Positions 1,568 to 53,075 of a stretch of 64,000 nucleotides of DNA are shown here, in pieces. A program made the position numbers and the translations under genes. The notes beneath the pieces are model-generated. The model worked only from the letters and a program-made list of their open reading frames with translations. It had not been told where the DNA came from and searched no databases. The stretch comes from Oligoflexales bacterium (lineage in GTDB: Bacteria; Myxococcota_A; UBA9042; DTJE01), in NCBI GenBank assembly GCA_012840965.1, contig DUVQ01000097.1, positions 5,045-69,044 of the forward strand. Reading direction: 5' to 3'. Every line of letters begins with the position of its first letter. The first letter of the stretch is position 1.

Positions 1568-1618
1568 GTTCCCTGCCTCCTGTCCCTGCCTCCTGTCCCC
1601 GTCCCTGTCCCTGCCCTC
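1568..1618. repeat. (GGGRCA)n hexanucleotide array, C-rich on + strand
   Basis: cctgcctcctgtccctgcctcctgtccccgtccctgtccctgccc. Same family as arrays at 4073, 11075, 20521, 31353 and others. Confidence 0.8.
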
Positions 1619-1851
1619 GCTTGATGGTTTACAGCTGCAACCAGCTTGTAAATCAAAGACTACATCAGGGGATAAATGAATGGGCTGACTGTTGACATAG
1701 ATGAAACGATTATCAAAGCGCCCACCAAAAGAAGGGCCAAGATTAAAGGCAGCAACCAATATTTTTTCCGGGTTCGCATCCAACCCCAAACTTGCTTCAT
1801 CAACGCCACTGAAATCCCCTTTTTGTGCTAAATCAACCCAATCAATTCAAA

Positions 1852-4008
1852 TCAGAACATGTTTTCCAGGTCTGAATCCATTTTGGCCACGTCTTGCCAG
1901 TACCCAGGTTCTGGCCCCTTGCCCGTTAGTCTTCTGATAATGGAAGTTGGCAACAAAACCAAGATAAAAACGGCTCCAAACAACAAATAACCCACGAAGG
2001 AATTGGCCTTGGCACCAAACTGGCTGAGTCGGTTTTCAAAGCCTCTTAACCCACGTGGAAACAAAAGCCCCATCAAAAGCCCAAATGAGGCAAAAAGCCA
2101 AGAACCTGCGGCCAAAACCATGCTTGGAGTCTTAGGTAAAAACCACGCTACAAGCCCCACAAGGGTAAACAGAACCGCAGTTTCAATACCAAAACGACGC
2201 AACTCTCCAACGCGTCTAGGACGTCGAAAAGGCTTTGGTTTTGGTAACTTCTGTCTGGTCCAGTCGTCAGGTTTTTTGGCTAAAAAAGGCCCTGCGGCCA
2301 ACACGTCGATGTCACAAGCCAAGAACGTCTGAACAGCATCTTTTGGGGTACAAACGATTGGTTGGCCTCGTAGGTTAAAGCTGGTATTTAAAACCACCGG
2401 GCAGTTGGTTTTTGAATGAAACGCTTGGATAAGTGATTGAAAATCCGGCTGGTTTTGGATATCCACGGTCTGAATTCGAGCAGAACCATCCACATGGGTC
2501 ACCGCTGGAATGTCGGACCTTAGGACCCCCAACTTGCCAAGTCCCTCTGGTTCAACTTCTGGCGCTGGCAAAAGCCGCTTTTGAGCCACCTGAGTTACCA
2601 GCAACATGTATGGACTTGAACGGTCTAAATCAAACCAGTCGGCAACATGTTCACGCAGAACGGCAGGTGCAAATGGGCGAAATCCTTCACGAAACTTTAT
2701 TTTTTCATTGACCACTCTCTGCATAGTGGGATTTCTTGGGTCCGCTAAGATGCTTCTGTTACCTAGCGCCCTTGGCCCAAACTCCATCGCGCCCACATAG
2801 CGGCCAACTACTTGGCCCAAATCAAGACAGTTTGCAACGGCCTGATCTATGTTTTCTCCAAGCTTTTCATATGGCAACCCGGCAGCTTCAAGCTCAGCTT
2901 GGATCTCAGAGTCATGAAAGGAAGGCCCAAGCAAGGCGCCATTCATGGAGTCGTGCTCAGACGGCTGGCGGGCCGCGCCAGTTGAATACCAACCAACTAG
3001 GGCGGCGCCCAAAGCACCGCCAGCATCACCTGCAGCAGGTTGGATCCAAATGTCGCCGAAATTCCCACTAGCCAGGATTTTCCCATTAGCCACACAGTTT
3101 AAAGCCACCCCACCAGCCAGACACAGGTTTTTGTACCCTGTCAAACGCCCGGCATAGGCTGCCTGACGAACCAAGATGATTTCAGTAACCTCTTGGATCG
3201 ACCTAGCCAAATCCATATGAACCTGTTCCAGCTTTGATTCGGGGGCCCTGGCACGGCAAAACCCATGGAACTTTTTACTGGTGGTTCGCTCGCCATACTG
3301 GAACGAAAACCAATCCATATTCAGTTCAAAGCCGCCATCATCATCAACGGCTACCATGTCGTCCAGAATTTTGCCCACATAAACAGGATTTCCATACGGA
3401 GCAAGCCCCATAACCTTGTATTCGTCGGAGTTAACCTTAAAACCCAAGAATTCAGTAAAAGCTGAATACAGCAGACCAATTGAATGCGGGAATCTGATTT
3501 CTTTAATCAATTCAATTTGATTGTCGACCCCAGCCGCAATCGAAGAAGTGGTCCATTCACCAACTCCATCAACCGTCAAAATGGCAGCCTCGGAAAACGG
3601 CGATGGATAAAACGCCGAAGCAGCATGCGAAAGATGATGTGACGTGTATAGAACAGGCCCTCTATACCGGATTTCCCTCTTCAGGATCCTAGGCAGAACC
3701 AGTTTATCGGCAAACCAAGAAGGCATCGCTTTACAAAAGGGCCCAACCCCTCTCGGAGCAACGTTTACAGAGCTCTGCAAAACTCTTTCAAACTTAATCA
3801 AAGGCTTTTCATAAAAAACGACCATGTCTAGGTCAGCAGCGCCAATTTTCGCCTTATCCAAACAAGCCTGAATCGCATTAAAAGGAAAACTCGGGTCATG
3901 CCTGATGCGAGTAAAGCGCTCTTCCTGGGCAGCCGCAACAATCGCCCCATCAACCACCAAACAGGCAGCACTATCATGATAAAAGGCTGATATACCCAGA
4001 ACGTTCAC
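1852..4008 (-). CDS. carbamoyltransferase (NodU/CmcH/TobZ family) with C-terminal ~150-aa multi-TM extension
   Basis: N-terminus LGISAFYHDSAACLVVDGAIVAAAQEERFTRIRHD matches the carbamoyltransferase N-domain. The ORF track start (4209) lies inside a hexamer repeat (PVPAPVPVP artefact). A GTG at 4008 yields MNVLGISAFYHD. C-terminal ELRRFG plus 3-4 TM helices, possibly SxtJ-like. Confidence 0.7.
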   Translation of the reverse strand: MNVLGISAFYHDSAACLVVDGAIVAAAQEERFTRIRHDPSFPFNAIQACLDKAKIGAADLDMVVFYEKPLIKFERVLQSSVNVAPRGVGPFCKAMPSWFADKLVLPRILKREIRYRGPVLYTSHHLSHAASAFYPSPFSEAAILTVDGVGEWTTSSIAAGVDNQIELIKEIRFPHSIGLLYSAFTEFLGFKVNSDEYKVMGLAPYGNPVYVGKILDDMVAVDDDGGFELNMDWFSFQYGERTTSKKFHGFCRARAPESKLEQVHMDLARSIQEVTEIILVRQAAYAGRLTGYKNLCLAGGVALNCVANGKILASGNFGDIWIQPAAGDAGGALGAALVGWYSTGAARQPSEHDSMNGALLGPSFHDSEIQAELEAAGLPYEKLGENIDQAVANCLDLGQVVGRYVGAMEFGPRALGNRSILADPRNPTMQRVVNEKIKFREGFRPFAPAVLREHVADWFDLDRSSPYMLLVTQVAQKRLLPAPEVEPEGLGKLGVLRSDIPAVTHVDGSARIQTVDIQNQPDFQSLIQAFHSKTNCPVVLNTSFNLRGQPIVCTPKDAVQTFLACDIDVLAAGPFLAKKPDDWTRQKLPKPKPFRRPRRVGELRRFGIETAVLFTLVGLVAWFLPKTPSMVLAAGSWLFASFGLLMGLLFPRGLRGFENRLSQFGAKANSFVGYLLFGAVFILVLLPTSIIRRLTGKGPEPGYWQDVAKMDSDLENMF

Positions 4009-4072
4009 GGCCAAAAAGCCCCCAAGCACAGGGTGATGGAGTATAGCACCGTTGAAGTACGTGGAGAATTCT

Positions 4073-52100: not shown

Positions 52101-52929
52101 CGCCATGCAGTGTAAATCCATCGTCACAGATACAGATAGGCCCCTCAGCGCCAAGCGCACAGCGCCCGTGGTCGCCGCAGTCGAGCCCCAAACATGGATT
52201 CGTCACGGCAACGCAATCCTTACCCTCCAGGTGGTAGCCTTCGTTACAAACACACAGCGGCTCGTTTGCGGTGGTCACTACACAAAAACCGTGGTCACCA
52301 CAGTCAACTTCAGAACATGGATTGGTCGTCACAACGCAATCCTTACCCTCCAGGTGGTAACCTTCGTTACAAACACACAGCGGCTCGTTTGCGGTGGTCA
52401 CTACACAAAAACCATTGTCACCACAGTCAACTTCTGCACATGGACTAGGCACGGCAACGCAACTGTTGCCATCGAGGTGGTATCCCTGGTCACAGATACA
52501 TAAGGCCTTGTTGCCAGCCGTCACAACGCAAGAGCCATAACCACCACAGGTGATACCTGCACAAGGCGAGCGTGGCACTTCATCTTCAACACAAGTGGCA
52601 CCGTCGGAGTGATATCCTGTGCGACAAAGACACACTGCGGTTTTGCCCTGGACAACAGCACAGACGCCATTGCCATCACATGTGATCTCCGCACAAGGGT
52701 CATCAACTGGGGATTTCTTGCAAACCTCGTCTTGCACAGTGTAACCAGGGTCACAGATGCAGATTGGACCTTCAGCCCCAACTGCACAACGCCCACGACT
52801 GCCGCAGTCAACACCAACGCAGTAATTCTCGAACTGCTCGTCATCAAAGCCAAAATCGAAAGAGCGGTCGTTATTGCTAACACAGGCGATGAAAAACAGC
52901 GTAACTAAAGGCAAAACTCTCTTCAACAT
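49117..52929 (-). CDS. giant lipoprotein: ~28 EGF-like Cys-rich modules plus C-terminal FGE/SUMF1-like domain (paralog 1)
   Basis: Start at [20 protein letters not shown]. Repeated CxxxDCGxHGxCxxxxxxxxCxCDxGYxxxxxxC modules. C-terminus [23 protein letters not shown]...[17 protein letters not shown]...RGG...GFRLARSLP matches the FGE-sulfatase domain. Confidence 0.75.
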   Translation of the reverse strand: [1270 protein letters not shown]

Positions 52930-53033
52930 AGCAACCCTCCAGGCAACCGGCATCTATTCCAGAAACCACCGCCTCACAAACGAAAAATCAAGGGGTTAGC
53001 AGGTTCAGGCTAGCATCAGCATGGATCCACGTC

Positions 53034-53075
53034 AAGGGCAGGGCCGGGGAGAGGGATAGGAGCCGGGGACAGGAC
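53034..53075. repeat. (GGGRCA)n-related G-rich array
   Basis: gggcagggccggggagagggataggagccggggacagg. Confidence 0.6.

Follow-up and report, generated by a model that had tools for sequence, protein, structure and literature searches.

We analysed a 64-kb window (the whole stretch of DNA studied) from an uncultured Myxococcota MAG of anaerobic digesters (~3.2 Mb, 51% GC, genome-reduced), in which housekeeping genes, e.g., rnf, proS neighbours, dinG and radical SAM genes, adjoin G-rich tandem repeats. TRF and our own scan identified 12 arrays of the GGGRCA type, measuring 31–264 nt each and covering 901 nt overall, i.e., one array per 5.3 kb (Table 1). A preliminary description of this DNA had listed 11 sites with tandem GGGACA, GGGGCA or GGAGCA hexamers and considered one array per ~5 kb a remarkable density; all 11 sites were recovered, and the measured density is unusually high. 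A twelfth array, absent from that list, lies in a TonB proline-rich linker. The data covered ~64 kb of contiguous sequence and ~650 kb of redundant fragments out of the 3.2-Mb genome; the fragments were retrieved via the MITE described below and are therefore a biased sample.

Table 1. Positions of the hexanucleotide arrays (A1–A12) and of the two MITE copies in the window
Feature	Position	Strand	Context
A1 array	1567..1617	- (G-rich)	65 nt upstream of gene 861..1502, downstream of carbamoyltransferase operon
A2 array	4073..4129	+	divergent spacer; directly joined to left end of MITE copy 1
MITE copy 1	4130..4487	+	9-nt junction GGGAGGCGA, then 349-nt long-palindrome element (4139-4487)
A3 array	11079..11193	+	fills whole spacer of convergent genes 10105..11091 and 11193..12239
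A4 array	20520..20633	+	divergent spacer, cvpA (19949..20440, -) / 20714..22273 (+)
A5 array	31358..31621	+	264 nt, 44 pure hexamers, all in frame
A6 array	32183..32219	+	between radical-SAM gene and DUF2505 gene start at 32128
A7 array, coding	41974..42048	+	- strand encodes PAPVPEPEPVPEPAPVPEPAPAPAP proline-rich linker of TonB-like protein 41391..42224
A8 array, short and degenerate	43476..43507	- (G-rich)	divergent spacer exbB / 43586..44776
A9 array	47935..47965	+	entire 32-nt spacer, convergent DinG-like helicase gene / 47963..48667
A10 array	48793..48836	+	at left end of MITE copy 2
MITE copy 2	48837..49076	+	junction GAC and 237-nt element (48840-49076)
A11 array	49084..49127	+	at right end of MITE copy 2
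A12 array, degenerate	53035..53071	+	between two tandem - strand EGF/FGE-sulfatase genes

With at most one mismatch, GGGRCAGGGRCA matched 80 times in the window against 2.1 expected, and 80 matches were reached in none of 100 shuffles. The GGGRCA consensus is accompanied by occasional 7-mers, and TRF gave block periods of 12, 13, 19, 25, 30, 37 and 42 nt; A3 has a 37-nt higher-order period, and A4, built of GGGGCA and GGAGGCA units, has periods of 13, 19 and 32 nt. As proposed earlier, the arrays fit the canonical G4 consensus: merging the canonical PQS of the window gave 14 regions, every one of them inside an array (shuffle mean 2.2, ~2 by chance), and 10 of the 12 arrays hold at least one, A7 and A8 being without. 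When ViennaRNA was run with its G4 setting, a G4 was part of the minimum-energy G-strand fold for nine of 10 arrays, and the C strand was unstructured. Many units are GGAGCA or GGAGGCA, leaving the G3 tracts broken, and the run lengths of G-tracts in the arrays showed no peak at four.

Arrays and the genes around them

Based on the gene calls for the window, arrays occurred in 9 of the 16 spacers that measure 80 nt or more, and three of the six convergent gene pairs had an array. Across the window and the ~650 kb of other loci of the host, 52 of 57 arrays lay outside long ORFs and five lay inside. The arrays had been placed at intergenic gene boundaries; this holds for nearly all of them, which are intergenic or at gene ends, but not for A7, which is genuinely coding.

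The arrays are open (stop-free) in every frame; therefore, adjacent ORFs continue into the arrays and are terminated by point-mutated units, in which CAG has become TAG, or ACA has become TCA (TGA on the other strand). At A3, the TAG stop of the + gene (10105..11091) is the mutated unit GGGGTA, and the TGA stop of the - gene (11193..12239) is the TCA directly after the last GGGGAC unit. Likewise, the radical-SAM gene stops at the TCA in the final GGGTCA unit of A6, the - gene at A9 stops at the TCA of GGGTCA, and A11 contains the stop of the EGF/FGE-sulfatase gene 49117..52929 (TCA of GGATCA, 49117–49119). A5 forms a GQ/EQ tail on the RseC-like ORF 30939..31478, which is cut by one TAG at 31476–31478, and ends 21 nt short of the stop of the convergent DUF2505 gene. 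Thus, of the overlaps with stop and start codons described earlier, those with stops were substantiated (six cases of genuine stop codons inside or against arrays), whereas no credible start codon was overlapped. The reported corruption of ORF calls was evident at 31478 as this tail, and at 4209 and 32239 as PVPAPVPVP and PDPVPAPVP in spurious N-terminal extensions of ORFs 1852..4209 and 31643..32239, respectively.

Arrays had been said to occur on either strand; both strands are indeed used, but with a bias of the G strand to the + strand (10:2). Relative to transcription, the 41 classifiable arrays from the window and other loci of the same organism showed no polarity (sense 10, antisense 12, convergent 12, divergent 7), and neighbouring arrays were co-oriented in 16 cases versus 6. 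Classical intrinsic terminators in the window were not in excess over shuffles, leaving room for another termination signal.

Variation among strains and relatives

The arrays turn over quickly between strains and species. Because they recur in independent metagenome assemblies, they are not assembly artefacts, a concern raised in the preliminary description. The suggested comparison of lengths among strains revealed block indels and unit shuffling in long arrays. Between fixed anchors, A3 had five alleles (145, 108, 108', 115 and 134 nt). The 264-nt A5 was reproduced in three other assemblies, one with a single-base difference, whereas MAG GCA_029567465.1 has a version with a 234-nt deletion; of 10 short-read contigs, six terminated at or within A5. 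Short arrays were otherwise stable: those with both flanking anchors were identical to the window in all 4–9 independent assemblies, except for the array at 47935 (A9), of which a unit-shuffled allele between identical flanks is present in strain L155. A2 was identical in 4+ assemblies, A7 was invariant in nine, A6 was invariant among strains and A8 among the assemblies compared; the array at 20520 (A4) was comparable in one other assembly only. A1, an inverted repeat of A2 (30 nt, 93%), was 30 nt longer in one strain. The A1–A2 segment was inverted in L140/L144, with a single array in place of the two, and in L185 a truncated MITE and an integrase island come after the orthologue of A4.

A relative at 85% identity had one array, at a non-orthologous site and with no MITE adjoining; its RseC/DUF2505 pair overlaps, and its RseC has no tail. 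In relatives at 74%, 61% and 54% identity (63–72% GC), no arrays were present in the sampled loci of 18–22 kb each, and the relative at 61% has a 4-nt spacer at the A9 locus. Convergent pairs with an array in the host abut or overlap in relatives (0–4 nt apart); therefore, the arrays did not take the place of an ancestral terminator.

A palindromic MITE family at the arrays

An unexpected find, missed by the preliminary description and the strongest structural fact of the analysis, was a family of palindromic MITEs. This multi-copy intergenic imperfect palindrome was found in 83 stretches from at least 40 distinct loci, including two copies in the window, and its length ranges from 168 to 551 nt, with size classes that result from internal insertions. 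Copy 1 aligns to copy 2, which is without the inner 112-nt palindrome of copy 1, and folds into a long hairpin on both strands (z ~ -5.8); a lone GGGACAG unit follows copy 1 at ~4502.

The arrays are the near-exclusive neighbourhood of this family. The left end of the MITE adjoined a G-strand array, joined to the 3' end of the array, in 33 of 34 loci, and the right flank was a G-array in 16 of 28 loci; a C-array was never seen among these flanks (34 left, 28 right). That is, the flanking arrays are direct repeats, and the orientation of the MITE to the array is fixed. No target-site duplication was found outside the arrays, a search for an autonomous element or transposase yielded none, and Rfam gave no match. 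The family can be likened to ERIC/IRU, Correia, REP/BIME and RUP as a multi-copy intergenic imperfect palindrome, and ERIC size classes also arise by internal insertions. To our knowledge, none of these has been described as embedded in a tandem microsatellite with fixed polarity.

Origin of the arrays

For the comparison of repeat density with the heptamer families below, the genome that carries the heptamers was taken as roughly 5 Mb. G-rich heptameric SSRs, namely GGGAATC in Xanthomonas campestris/axonopodis and GGGGA(C/T)T in Nostoc PCC 7120 (cyanobacterial STRR type), are a precedent for abundant intergenic G-rich SSRs without assigned function (Rehm et al. 2015, PMC4692102), and, by analogy, the arrays are best read as a hexamer form of this class. 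Both consist of short G-tract units in head-to-tail arrays of 2 to >20 units that are dispersed, ~90% non-coding and G4-competent, often lie <50 nt from stop codons or overlap them, vary in length and sequence between close relatives and have no tie to a gene class (PMC4692102). However, the unit here is the hexamer GGGRCA instead of a heptamer, the density is ~5 times higher than that given by ~186 repeats per genome, the strong four-unit peak of the heptamers is absent, divergent spacers are not avoided, a strand bias is apparent where none was found for the heptamers, and a MITE family lies in the arrays, whereas the Xanthomonas repeats are mostly without mobile-element association (PMC4692102). 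The intergenic TAACTGA heptamer direct repeats of marine Beggiatoaceae, cyanobacteria and Bacteroidetes (one genome has 169 sets, and arrays elsewhere reach 43 copies; MacGregor 2015, PMC4679880) are likewise lineage-restricted, highly abundant intergenic short tandem repeats without established function, but they are not G-rich and lie mostly a few nt upstream of start codons, suggesting a translational role (PMC4679880); the arrays here have no such polarity.

Phase-variation (contingency) SSRs of host-adapted bacteria are also short tandem repeats whose copy number varies among strains by slippage. However, they are found in the promoter spacer or the 5' part of the coding sequence of surface/virulence genes and act via frameshift or spacer length, whereas the present arrays occupy all spacer types beside housekeeping genes, are strain-invariant when short and, because their units are hexamers, cause no frameshift. 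The plant microsatellite-targeted non-autonomous transposons, i.e., SaTar MULEs (guayule, rice) and TAFTA (maize), resemble the MITE as small TIR/palindromic non-autonomous elements with microsatellite on both sides and no normal target-site duplication; the models proposed for them are site-specific transposase targeting with microsatellite expansion in gap repair, or insertion into microsatellites already present by homologous recombination (PMC5907723). They belong to the eukaryotic MULEs, lie mostly in (TA)n and frequently form stacked multimers (PMC5907723), whereas the MITE is bacterial, lies in a G-rich hexamer array in strictly one orientation and has no known autonomous parent. No bacterial precedent for a microsatellite-embedded MITE was found in the literature searched.

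It is possible, but rather unlikely, that the MITE seeded the arrays, which would have been made or extended at its ends on insertion, e.g., by polymerase stuttering in gap repair, a model put forward for the TAFTA elements of maize, or would have travelled with it as terminal repeats; those now found solo would have been left after MITE loss by recombination between the direct-repeat flanking arrays, like solo LTRs. Seeding would explain how arrays came to sites that lack a seed, e.g., where the stop codons of convergent genes abut, and is consistent with the array-bound left end, the fixed orientation, the direct-repeat flanks and the plant precedent (PMC5907723). Furthermore, at the site matching 4130, both array and MITE are absent from the divergent lineage L140, the array–MITE block at 4130 in the window is bracketed by the duplicated 23-nt TTGCAnCTGTAAACCATCAAGCG, and MITE left-end fragments follow several solo arrays (GGCAATTGTG after A4; GGAGACGAT and TGTGCTGA elsewhere). 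Left-end 6-mers occurred in 12 of 34 right flanks versus 2 of 34 left flanks, two of the 12 being intact left ends of the MITE that escaped the filter; however, this remnant test is weak because short common words such as ATTGTG contribute to the counts. In addition, occupied-versus-empty polymorphism was looked for and not found, the window has nine solo arrays versus three MITE-linked ones, no autonomous element or transposase was found, and the array in the relative at 85% identity stands without a MITE.

We regard it as unlikely that the arrays are functional G4 elements (DNA or RNA), or expose a C-rich Rho-loading transcript from the opposite strand, with a terminator, insulator or expression-modulating role at the boundaries of genes. 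The confinement of canonical PQS to arrays, the predicted G-strand folds, the abutting stop codons and occupied convergent pairs, the intrinsic terminators at shuffle level and the G4 formation of analogous Xanthomonas repeats in vitro (PMC4692102) would fit such a role; however, the arrays have no orientation preference versus flanking genes, occupy divergent, convergent and tandem spacers equally, are not conserved in position (the same convergent genes are 0–4 nt apart in relatives), do not prefer four G-tracts, have G3 runs interrupted by frequent GGAGCA/GGAGGCA units and, in A8 and coding A7, lack a PQS. The preliminary description implied G4s acting at promoters or terminators; G4 competence by sequence stands, but with no polarity, positional conservation or four-tract peak, a G4 regulatory role of the arrays is unsupported. 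The KOPS consensus of E. coli is GGGNAGGG. GGGCAGGG, created by GGGGCA units, fits this consensus, with 18 octamers on the + strand inside arrays; together with the predominance of the G strand on the + strand whatever the gene direction (10 of 12 arrays) and the co-orientation of neighbours, this would suit a replication-oriented chromosome-level polar signal or protein-binding array (KOPS-/Chi-like guidance, nucleoid-protein landing site). We nevertheless consider this very improbable: familiar polar motifs are dispersed single octamers, mostly within genes, and not tandem arrays, GGGNAGGG outside arrays is too rare to judge (three on + versus none on -), and the strand bias is only modestly significant. 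It is hardly credible that, instead of being non-coding DNA, the arrays are translated into low-complexity stretches of protein (PxP or GQ linkers). Translation would agree with A7, which codes for a typical proline-rich spacer of TonB, with A5, built of pure in-frame hexamers whose variable position is the Gly third-codon base, and with the five arrays within long ORFs; however, most arrays have 7-mers and 13-, 19- or 37-nt periods that break any frame, arrays are flanked by stop codons or placed in the promoter regions of divergent genes, and A5 has a nonsense codon midway, is 234 nt shorter in one strain, begins after the end of the Pfam RseC domain and has no counterpart in the tail-less RseC of the relative at 85% identity. 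Protein coding by the intergenic arrays was refuted by the frame-breaking periodicity.

We consider it probable, although far from assured, that the arrays are a lineage-specific, slippage-driven, non-coding G-rich hexanucleotide minisatellite family that hosts or co-propagates with the MITE. The arrays grow, shrink and are reshuffled in blocks, as would result from slipped-strand mispairing or unequal recombination, and they persist where six-frame-open sequence is harmless, i.e., in all spacer types, at gene 3' ends and in one proline-rich linker. Their restriction to one motif family and their presence, with no obvious seed, between convergent genes that abut in relatives argue against purely neutral slippage and speak for a specific mechanism by which they are generated or spread; the co-orientation (16:6) and strand bias (10:2) suggest a directional process or selection beyond simple slippage. 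The G4/single-strand-forming potential would be a property of the DNA and not, we infer, a conserved device for cis-regulation; it probably favours slippage, and on account of it the MITE may prefer the arrays as sites for landing or recombination. Because of their shared homology, the arrays may also serve as substrates for ectopic recombination, e.g., in the inversion and the island junctions at array sites.

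Inventory and gene context of the hexamer arrays

Tandem Repeats Finder and our own scan of the window recovered a GGGRCA-type hexamer array at each of the 11 coordinates listed in the preliminary description. The twelve arrays now known, A1–A12 from left to right, are tabulated below together with the two copies of a palindromic repeat element (MITE); copy 1 adjoins A2, and copy 2 lies between A10 and A11. The arrays covered 901 nt at one array per 5.3 kb, i.e., at the high density described previously. The commonest units were GGGACA (31), GGGGCA (14) and GGAGCA (9), accompanied by the 7-mers GGGGACA, GGGGGCA and GGAGGCA, and Tandem Repeats Finder resolved higher-order periods of 12–42 nt. 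With one mismatch permitted, the pattern GGGRCAGGGRCA had 80 matches against 2.1 expected, and none of the shuffles reached 80.

Positions of the hexamer arrays and MITE copies in the window
Feature	Position	G-rich strand	Length	Basis
A1	1567-1617	-		Tandem Repeats Finder and own scan
A2	4073-4129	+		Tandem Repeats Finder and own scan
A3	11079-11193	+		Tandem Repeats Finder and own scan
A4	20520-20633	+		Tandem Repeats Finder and own scan
A5	31358-31621	+		Tandem Repeats Finder and own scan
A6	32183-32219	+		Tandem Repeats Finder and own scan
A7	41974-42048	+		additional array, absent from the preliminary description
A8	43476-43507	-		Tandem Repeats Finder and own scan
A9	47935-47965	+		Tandem Repeats Finder and own scan
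A10	48793-48836	+		Tandem Repeats Finder and own scan
A11	49084-49127	+		Tandem Repeats Finder and own scan
A12	53035-53071	+		Tandem Repeats Finder and own scan
MITE copy 1	4139-4487		349 nt	alignment to copy 2
MITE copy 2	48840-49076		237 nt, without the inner 112-nt palindrome	alignment to copy 1

The G4 competence read from the sequence was upheld: all 14 merged regions of canonical putative quadruplex sequence (PQS, (G3+ N1-7)x4) in the window lay inside arrays, and shuffles averaged 2.2. At least one PQS occurred in 10 of the 12 arrays, A7 and A8 having none. The ViennaRNA G4 option predicted a G4 in the minimum-energy fold of the G-rich strand (G strand) for 9 of 10 arrays, and the C-rich strand (C strand) was predicted to be essentially without structure.

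About 50 more unique arrays were found in other loci of the host organism, so the family comprises many dispersed head-to-tail copies. A search for (GGGRCA)4 across 185,579 species genomes listed scattered single matches, many of them in Streptomyces, and the host organism was not among the matches listed. The bare motif is therefore not unique. In Rfam, at gathering and at permissive thresholds, neither the arrays nor the MITE matched a family, one tRNA-Met being the only match in the window, and a literature search by accession and by exact repeat strings gave nothing relevant. The arrays are not CRISPR, as their units are contiguous, 6–7 nt long and without spacers, compared with 24–48 nt repeats with unique spacers. 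Telomeric repeats were rejected likewise, since the positions are internal and dispersed and not at the ends of a linear replicon.

Gene positions were taken from ORFs combined with the gene calls attached to contigs of other assemblies. As had been proposed, the arrays sat at gene boundaries: 11 of the 12 in the window were intergenic or at gene ends, and 52 of 57 lay outside long ORFs when about 650 kb of other host loci was included. Of the 16 window spacers measuring 80 nt or more, 9 contained arrays, as did one spacer of 32 nt. Both divergent and convergent spacers held them, three of six in each case. A7 is coding; its minus strand gives the proline-rich spacer of a TonB-like protein.

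Because none of the six frames of (GGGRCA)n contains a stop codon, ORFs read on into the arrays. The suspected distortion of ORF calling was confirmed, with spurious PVPAPVP N-terminal extensions of 1852..4209 and 31643..32239, whose real starts are at 4029 and 32128. The RseC-like gene 30939..31478, by comparison, has a real GQ/EQ tail past its Pfam domain, gained from A5. Six genuine stops lay inside or directly against arrays, in line with the overlap noted earlier. These were TAG from GGGGTA units at 11089 and 31476, TGA read from the TCA of GGGTCA or GGATCA at 32217, 47963 and 49117, and TGA at 11193 read from the TCA right after the last A3 unit.

Several neighboring features of the window were also recorded. 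The DinG/XPD-family helicase gene at 45855-47930 (+) ends 4 nt ahead of A9; this helicase family includes G4-unwinding enzymes. Its product has 691 aa compared with about 650 aa in homologues, which suggests that the TTG start, abutting the holA start codon at 45853, was over-called. Four tandem paralogous genes at 49117-63778 (-) encode many EGF-like cysteine-rich repeats and a C-terminal FGE-sulfatase domain, with DNA periods of 117 nt and 381 nt. The first of these genes varied from 1153 to 1348 aa across samples, some assemblies having short FGE-sulfatase ORFs only; the 1278-aa EGF/FGE protein had no exact match, as the gene caller had chosen another start. A giant 2089-aa protein at 12679-18948 (-) has Beta_helix_4 and Dicty_CTDC matches in precomputed annotation; its gene contains 165-nt x9.5 and 483-nt x3.1 tandem repeats, and its length and gene split depended on the assembly (1714+540, 1879+540, 2080 or 2084 aa). 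A 25-nt x3.1 tandem repeat (TGGCGACCTTAACAAAAGCCAGAGA) at 33945-34022, in the divergent spacer of two B12-binding radical SAM genes, has no relation to the hexamer arrays. The unannotated 326-aa gene 35471..36451 carries in-frame 15-nt x6.3 (35630-35727) and 12-nt x4.8 (35863-35919) repeats.

Variation among strains, relatives and rearranged loci

Exact protein matches assigned the window to an uncultured 'Myxococcota bacterium' MAG, which an older record names Deltaproteobacteria bacterium ADurb.Bin058. This host was present in considerably more than a hundred assemblies from anaerobic digesters, one of the contigs being 3.2 Mb long (JBMNKS010000001.1, GCA_050952305.1). The short arrays compared were the same as in the window in all 4–9 independent assemblies, which came from different assemblers and had both flanking anchors present; the exceptions were one divergent A9 allele and A4, which was comparable in one other assembly only. 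The 264-nt array A5 was found again in three other assemblies, with a single-base difference in one. Thus, the preliminary description's proviso that the arrays might be assembly artefacts was ruled out by recurrence of the same arrays across independent assemblies. MAG GCA_029567465.1 lacks 39 units (234 nt) of A5 and differs at the junction, and 6 of 10 short-read contigs stopped at or within A5.

When array lengths were compared among related strains, the long arrays varied and the short ones were largely constant. A3 had at least four length alleles between fixed anchors (145, two different 108s, 115 or 134 nt), the commonest change being the loss of one 37-nt block. A9 had a unit-shuffled allele in one sample with unchanged flanks, and A1 had an allele with an additional 30 nt. 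These allele lengths and the shuffling among assemblies indicate that the arrays behave as mini- or microsatellites; long arrays are unstable and short arrays stable at the 99.5–99.9% identity level.

In the relative at 85% identity (L134), the RseC and DUF2505 genes overlap and the array between them is absent; its single array is at another site. Relatives at 74%, 61% and 54% identity (63–72% GC) had no arrays in their sampled loci (18–22 kb each), and in the 61%-identity relative 4 nt separate the convergent DinG and 234-aa genes. Because the same gene pairs abut in relatives, the arrays were added between genes and did not replace an older signal. The host lineage has 51% GC on an assembled contig of about 3.2 Mb, compared with 63–72% GC in the nearest relatives found (54–74% protein identity), suggesting that the host is a GC-reduced branch of Myxococcota. 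The arrays appear confined to this low-GC branch. Separately, L134 (6228-8024 and 21537 onward) carries a high-GC IS91-family (Y2 transposase) insertion, which has duplicated pntA/pntB genes on either side and adjoins the only hexamer array of that relative.

Arrays sit at REARRANGEMENT points, namely inversion and island junctions in sequences from other assemblies (L140/L144 and L185). L140 and L144 had 99.5% identity to the window right of 4517, and their left part only 82–85%. The carbamoyltransferase segment (window 1618-4054; L140/L144 1994-4435) is inverted in this other population, in which a single degenerate array separates the carbamoyltransferase gene from the 213-aa gene. In the window, the inverted segment is bracketed by A1 and A2, which form an inverted repeat, and a 23-nt sequence, TTGCAnCTGTAAACCATCAAGCG, is duplicated at the inversion junctions (1618-1640, reverse complement, and 4529-4551). 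This duplicate, which lies beside A1 and upstream of the gene at 4585, is locus-specific and does not belong to the MITE. In one sample (L185, reverse complement, about 3550-4500, the counterpart of window 20440-20556), the ortholog of the array at 20520 precedes a truncated MITE, after which an island begins. By eye, the N-terminus of the first island gene reads like that of a P4-type tyrosine integrase, and the locus looks like a genomic island inserted at an array/MITE.

The MITE and its junctions with arrays

The flanks of the arrays at 4073 and 48793 were near-identical, and both belong to the MITE. On either strand, it was predicted to fold into a long hairpin (z about -5.8), with imperfect complementarity of the terminal ~22 nt. 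A 21-nt core retrieved 83 MITE stretches from JGI/ENA metagenome contigs, representing at least 40 distinct loci and size classes of approximately 168, 237, 349 and 551 nt. The element is thus short (under about 600 nt), non-coding, palindromic, and dispersed in multiple copies, as a MITE should be.

Its ends are TTGTGCTGATCTGCAGGATT on the left and AGCAGGATCTGTAGC on the right. At 33 of 34 loci a G-strand array ran directly into the left end, through the junction ...GGGACAGG[A/G]AGA[C/T]G[A/T]|TTGTGCTGATCTGCAGGATT. At the right end, with the junction ...AGCAGGATCTGTAGC|AGGGACAGG..., an array of at least 30 nt was present in 16 of 28 loci, and most other readable ones had one to three units. 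A C-strand array was never seen next to the MITE in these 34 left and 28 right flanks.

Outside the flanking arrays, no direct repeat marked a target-site duplication (longest common substring, 5.2 compared with 5.6 for the null); a duplication within the arrays themselves would be invisible to this test. Pairing of MITE ends gave no autonomous copy or transposase partner in about 650 kb, and the one 1.7-kb end pair proved to be two MITEs flanking an ordinary gene. Polymorphisms among the compared loci concerned array length only, never MITE presence or absence. Short pieces of the left MITE end follow some solo arrays, which hints weakly at an origin of solo arrays by loss of the MITE between its directly repeated flanks. 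Together, the fixed orientation and the lack of an outside duplication and an autonomous copy point to three options: the MITE may insert into arrays in a fixed orientation, it may spread from array to array through homologous recombination, or arrays may be generated at its ends.

Function, origin and comparison with known repeats

The regulatory G4 role implied by the preliminary description was unsupported by orientation, conservation or tract-number statistics. Relative to transcription, the G strand was sense in 10 cases, antisense in 12, convergent in 12 and divergent in 7. Polarity was thus absent, which leaves a fixed-sense role at the RNA level, whether by an mRNA G4 or by Rho loading at a C-rich site, unsupported. 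Uninterrupted runs of 3, 4, 5 and 6 G-tracts numbered 59, 39, 23 and 5, declining steadily without a peak at four. As intrinsic (Rho-independent) terminators, the arrays would need an inverted repeat and a T run, and they have neither; no terminator-like site fell within an array, the closest one stopping at A9's left boundary. Consensus sites resembling promoters and terminators were no commoner in the window than in shuffles, and these counts provide no argument for or against a terminator role. Phase-variable contingency SSRs, which switch a surface or virulence gene through length change in its 5' coding region or promoter spacer, were also rejected: most arrays are at 3' ends or are flanked by housekeeping genes, the short ones are invariant among strains, and hexamer units permit no frameshift. 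The statement that arrays occur on either strand holds, but the distribution is uneven, with the G strand on the + strand in 10 of 12 whatever the gene direction. The ratio of co-oriented to oppositely oriented neighboring arrays was 8:3 both in the window and in other loci (16:6 in total, pairs around one MITE excluded). In these local data, the 10:2 strand bias and the 16:6 co-orientation are no more than suggestive of a DNA-level directionality. A KOPS/Chi-type polar motif, whose strand skew would reverse at ori and ter, is an improbable reading of this bias; KOPS-like octamers outside the arrays were very few in the window.

The best-supported reading is that the arrays are a lineage-specific, slippage-driven family of G-rich minisatellites coupled to the palindromic MITE. 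Such arrays would be tolerated wherever a sequence open in all frames does no harm and may act as a recombination substrate, and the MITE is the obvious candidate for the vehicle carrying the motif to new seedless sites. A bolder and rather improbable reading, at roughly one in four, is that arrays and MITE form one mobile system. This would be a transposon or recombination-driven element recognizing or generating G4-forming hexamer microsatellites, possibly through an HUH-type single-strand- or structure-specific enzyme, and solo arrays would be its footprints.

The closest described relatives of these minisatellites are the GGGAATC heptamer repeats of Xanthomonas, about 186 per genome, and their Nostoc counterpart GGGGA(C/T)T. 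These are approximately 90% intergenic, often lie over stop codons, form G4 in vitro and vary from one close relative to another, and no function is known for them (PMC4692102). The likeness lies in a dispersed, mainly non-coding SSR with G3+ tracts that touches stops (PMC4692102). However, the Xanthomonas and Nostoc units are GGGNATC and GGGGAYT heptamers, whereas ours are GGGRCA hexamers plus some 7-mers. The density here is about five-fold above that of the Xanthomonas repeats, taking a Xanthomonas genome of roughly 5 Mb. The Xanthomonas repeats peak at four units, a preference lacking here, and divergent spacers, under-represented for repeats of that type, are not avoided by our arrays. 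An apparent strand bias further distinguishes the arrays from the Xanthomonas and Nostoc repeats, as does the association with a mobile element, which was explicitly not seen in PMC4692102. The TAACTGA repeats of Beggiatoaceae are likewise lineage-specific and intergenic (PMC4679880); they are polar relative to start codons, whereas our arrays show no polarity relative to genes. A survey of 117,861 genomes reports a general depletion of short tandem repeats in bacteria and, for hexanucleotide repeats, a usual enrichment in coding sequence (PMC12699852); against this background, dense arrays of hexamers between genes are out of the ordinary. In plants, SaTar and TAFTA are non-autonomous transposons flanked by microsatellites, for which microsatellite targeting, gap-repair expansion or homologous recombination has been proposed (PMC5907723). 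The searchable literature yielded no bacterial example of a microsatellite-flanked non-autonomous transposon.

For annotation, the arrays fragment short-read assemblies and yield false ORF extensions and chimeric C-terminal tails; masking is advised for these MAGs, in which arrays also flag sites of inversion and island insertion. The host genome offers G4-competent sequences at high natural density and in all orientations relative to genes. Many of the digesters sequenced contain the host in abundance, so effects of such repeats on transcription or replication could be examined in metatranscriptomes and long reads that already exist. The fixed-polarity pairing with the MITE offers a concrete handle on the spread of a single repeat motif and could expose a bacterial insertion mechanism specific for DNA structure or for microsatellites. 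If arrays and MITE do form one system, it would give prokaryotes their first counterpart of the SaTar/TAFTA elements of plants and would explain how one SSR motif colonized more than half of the larger spacers in the window.
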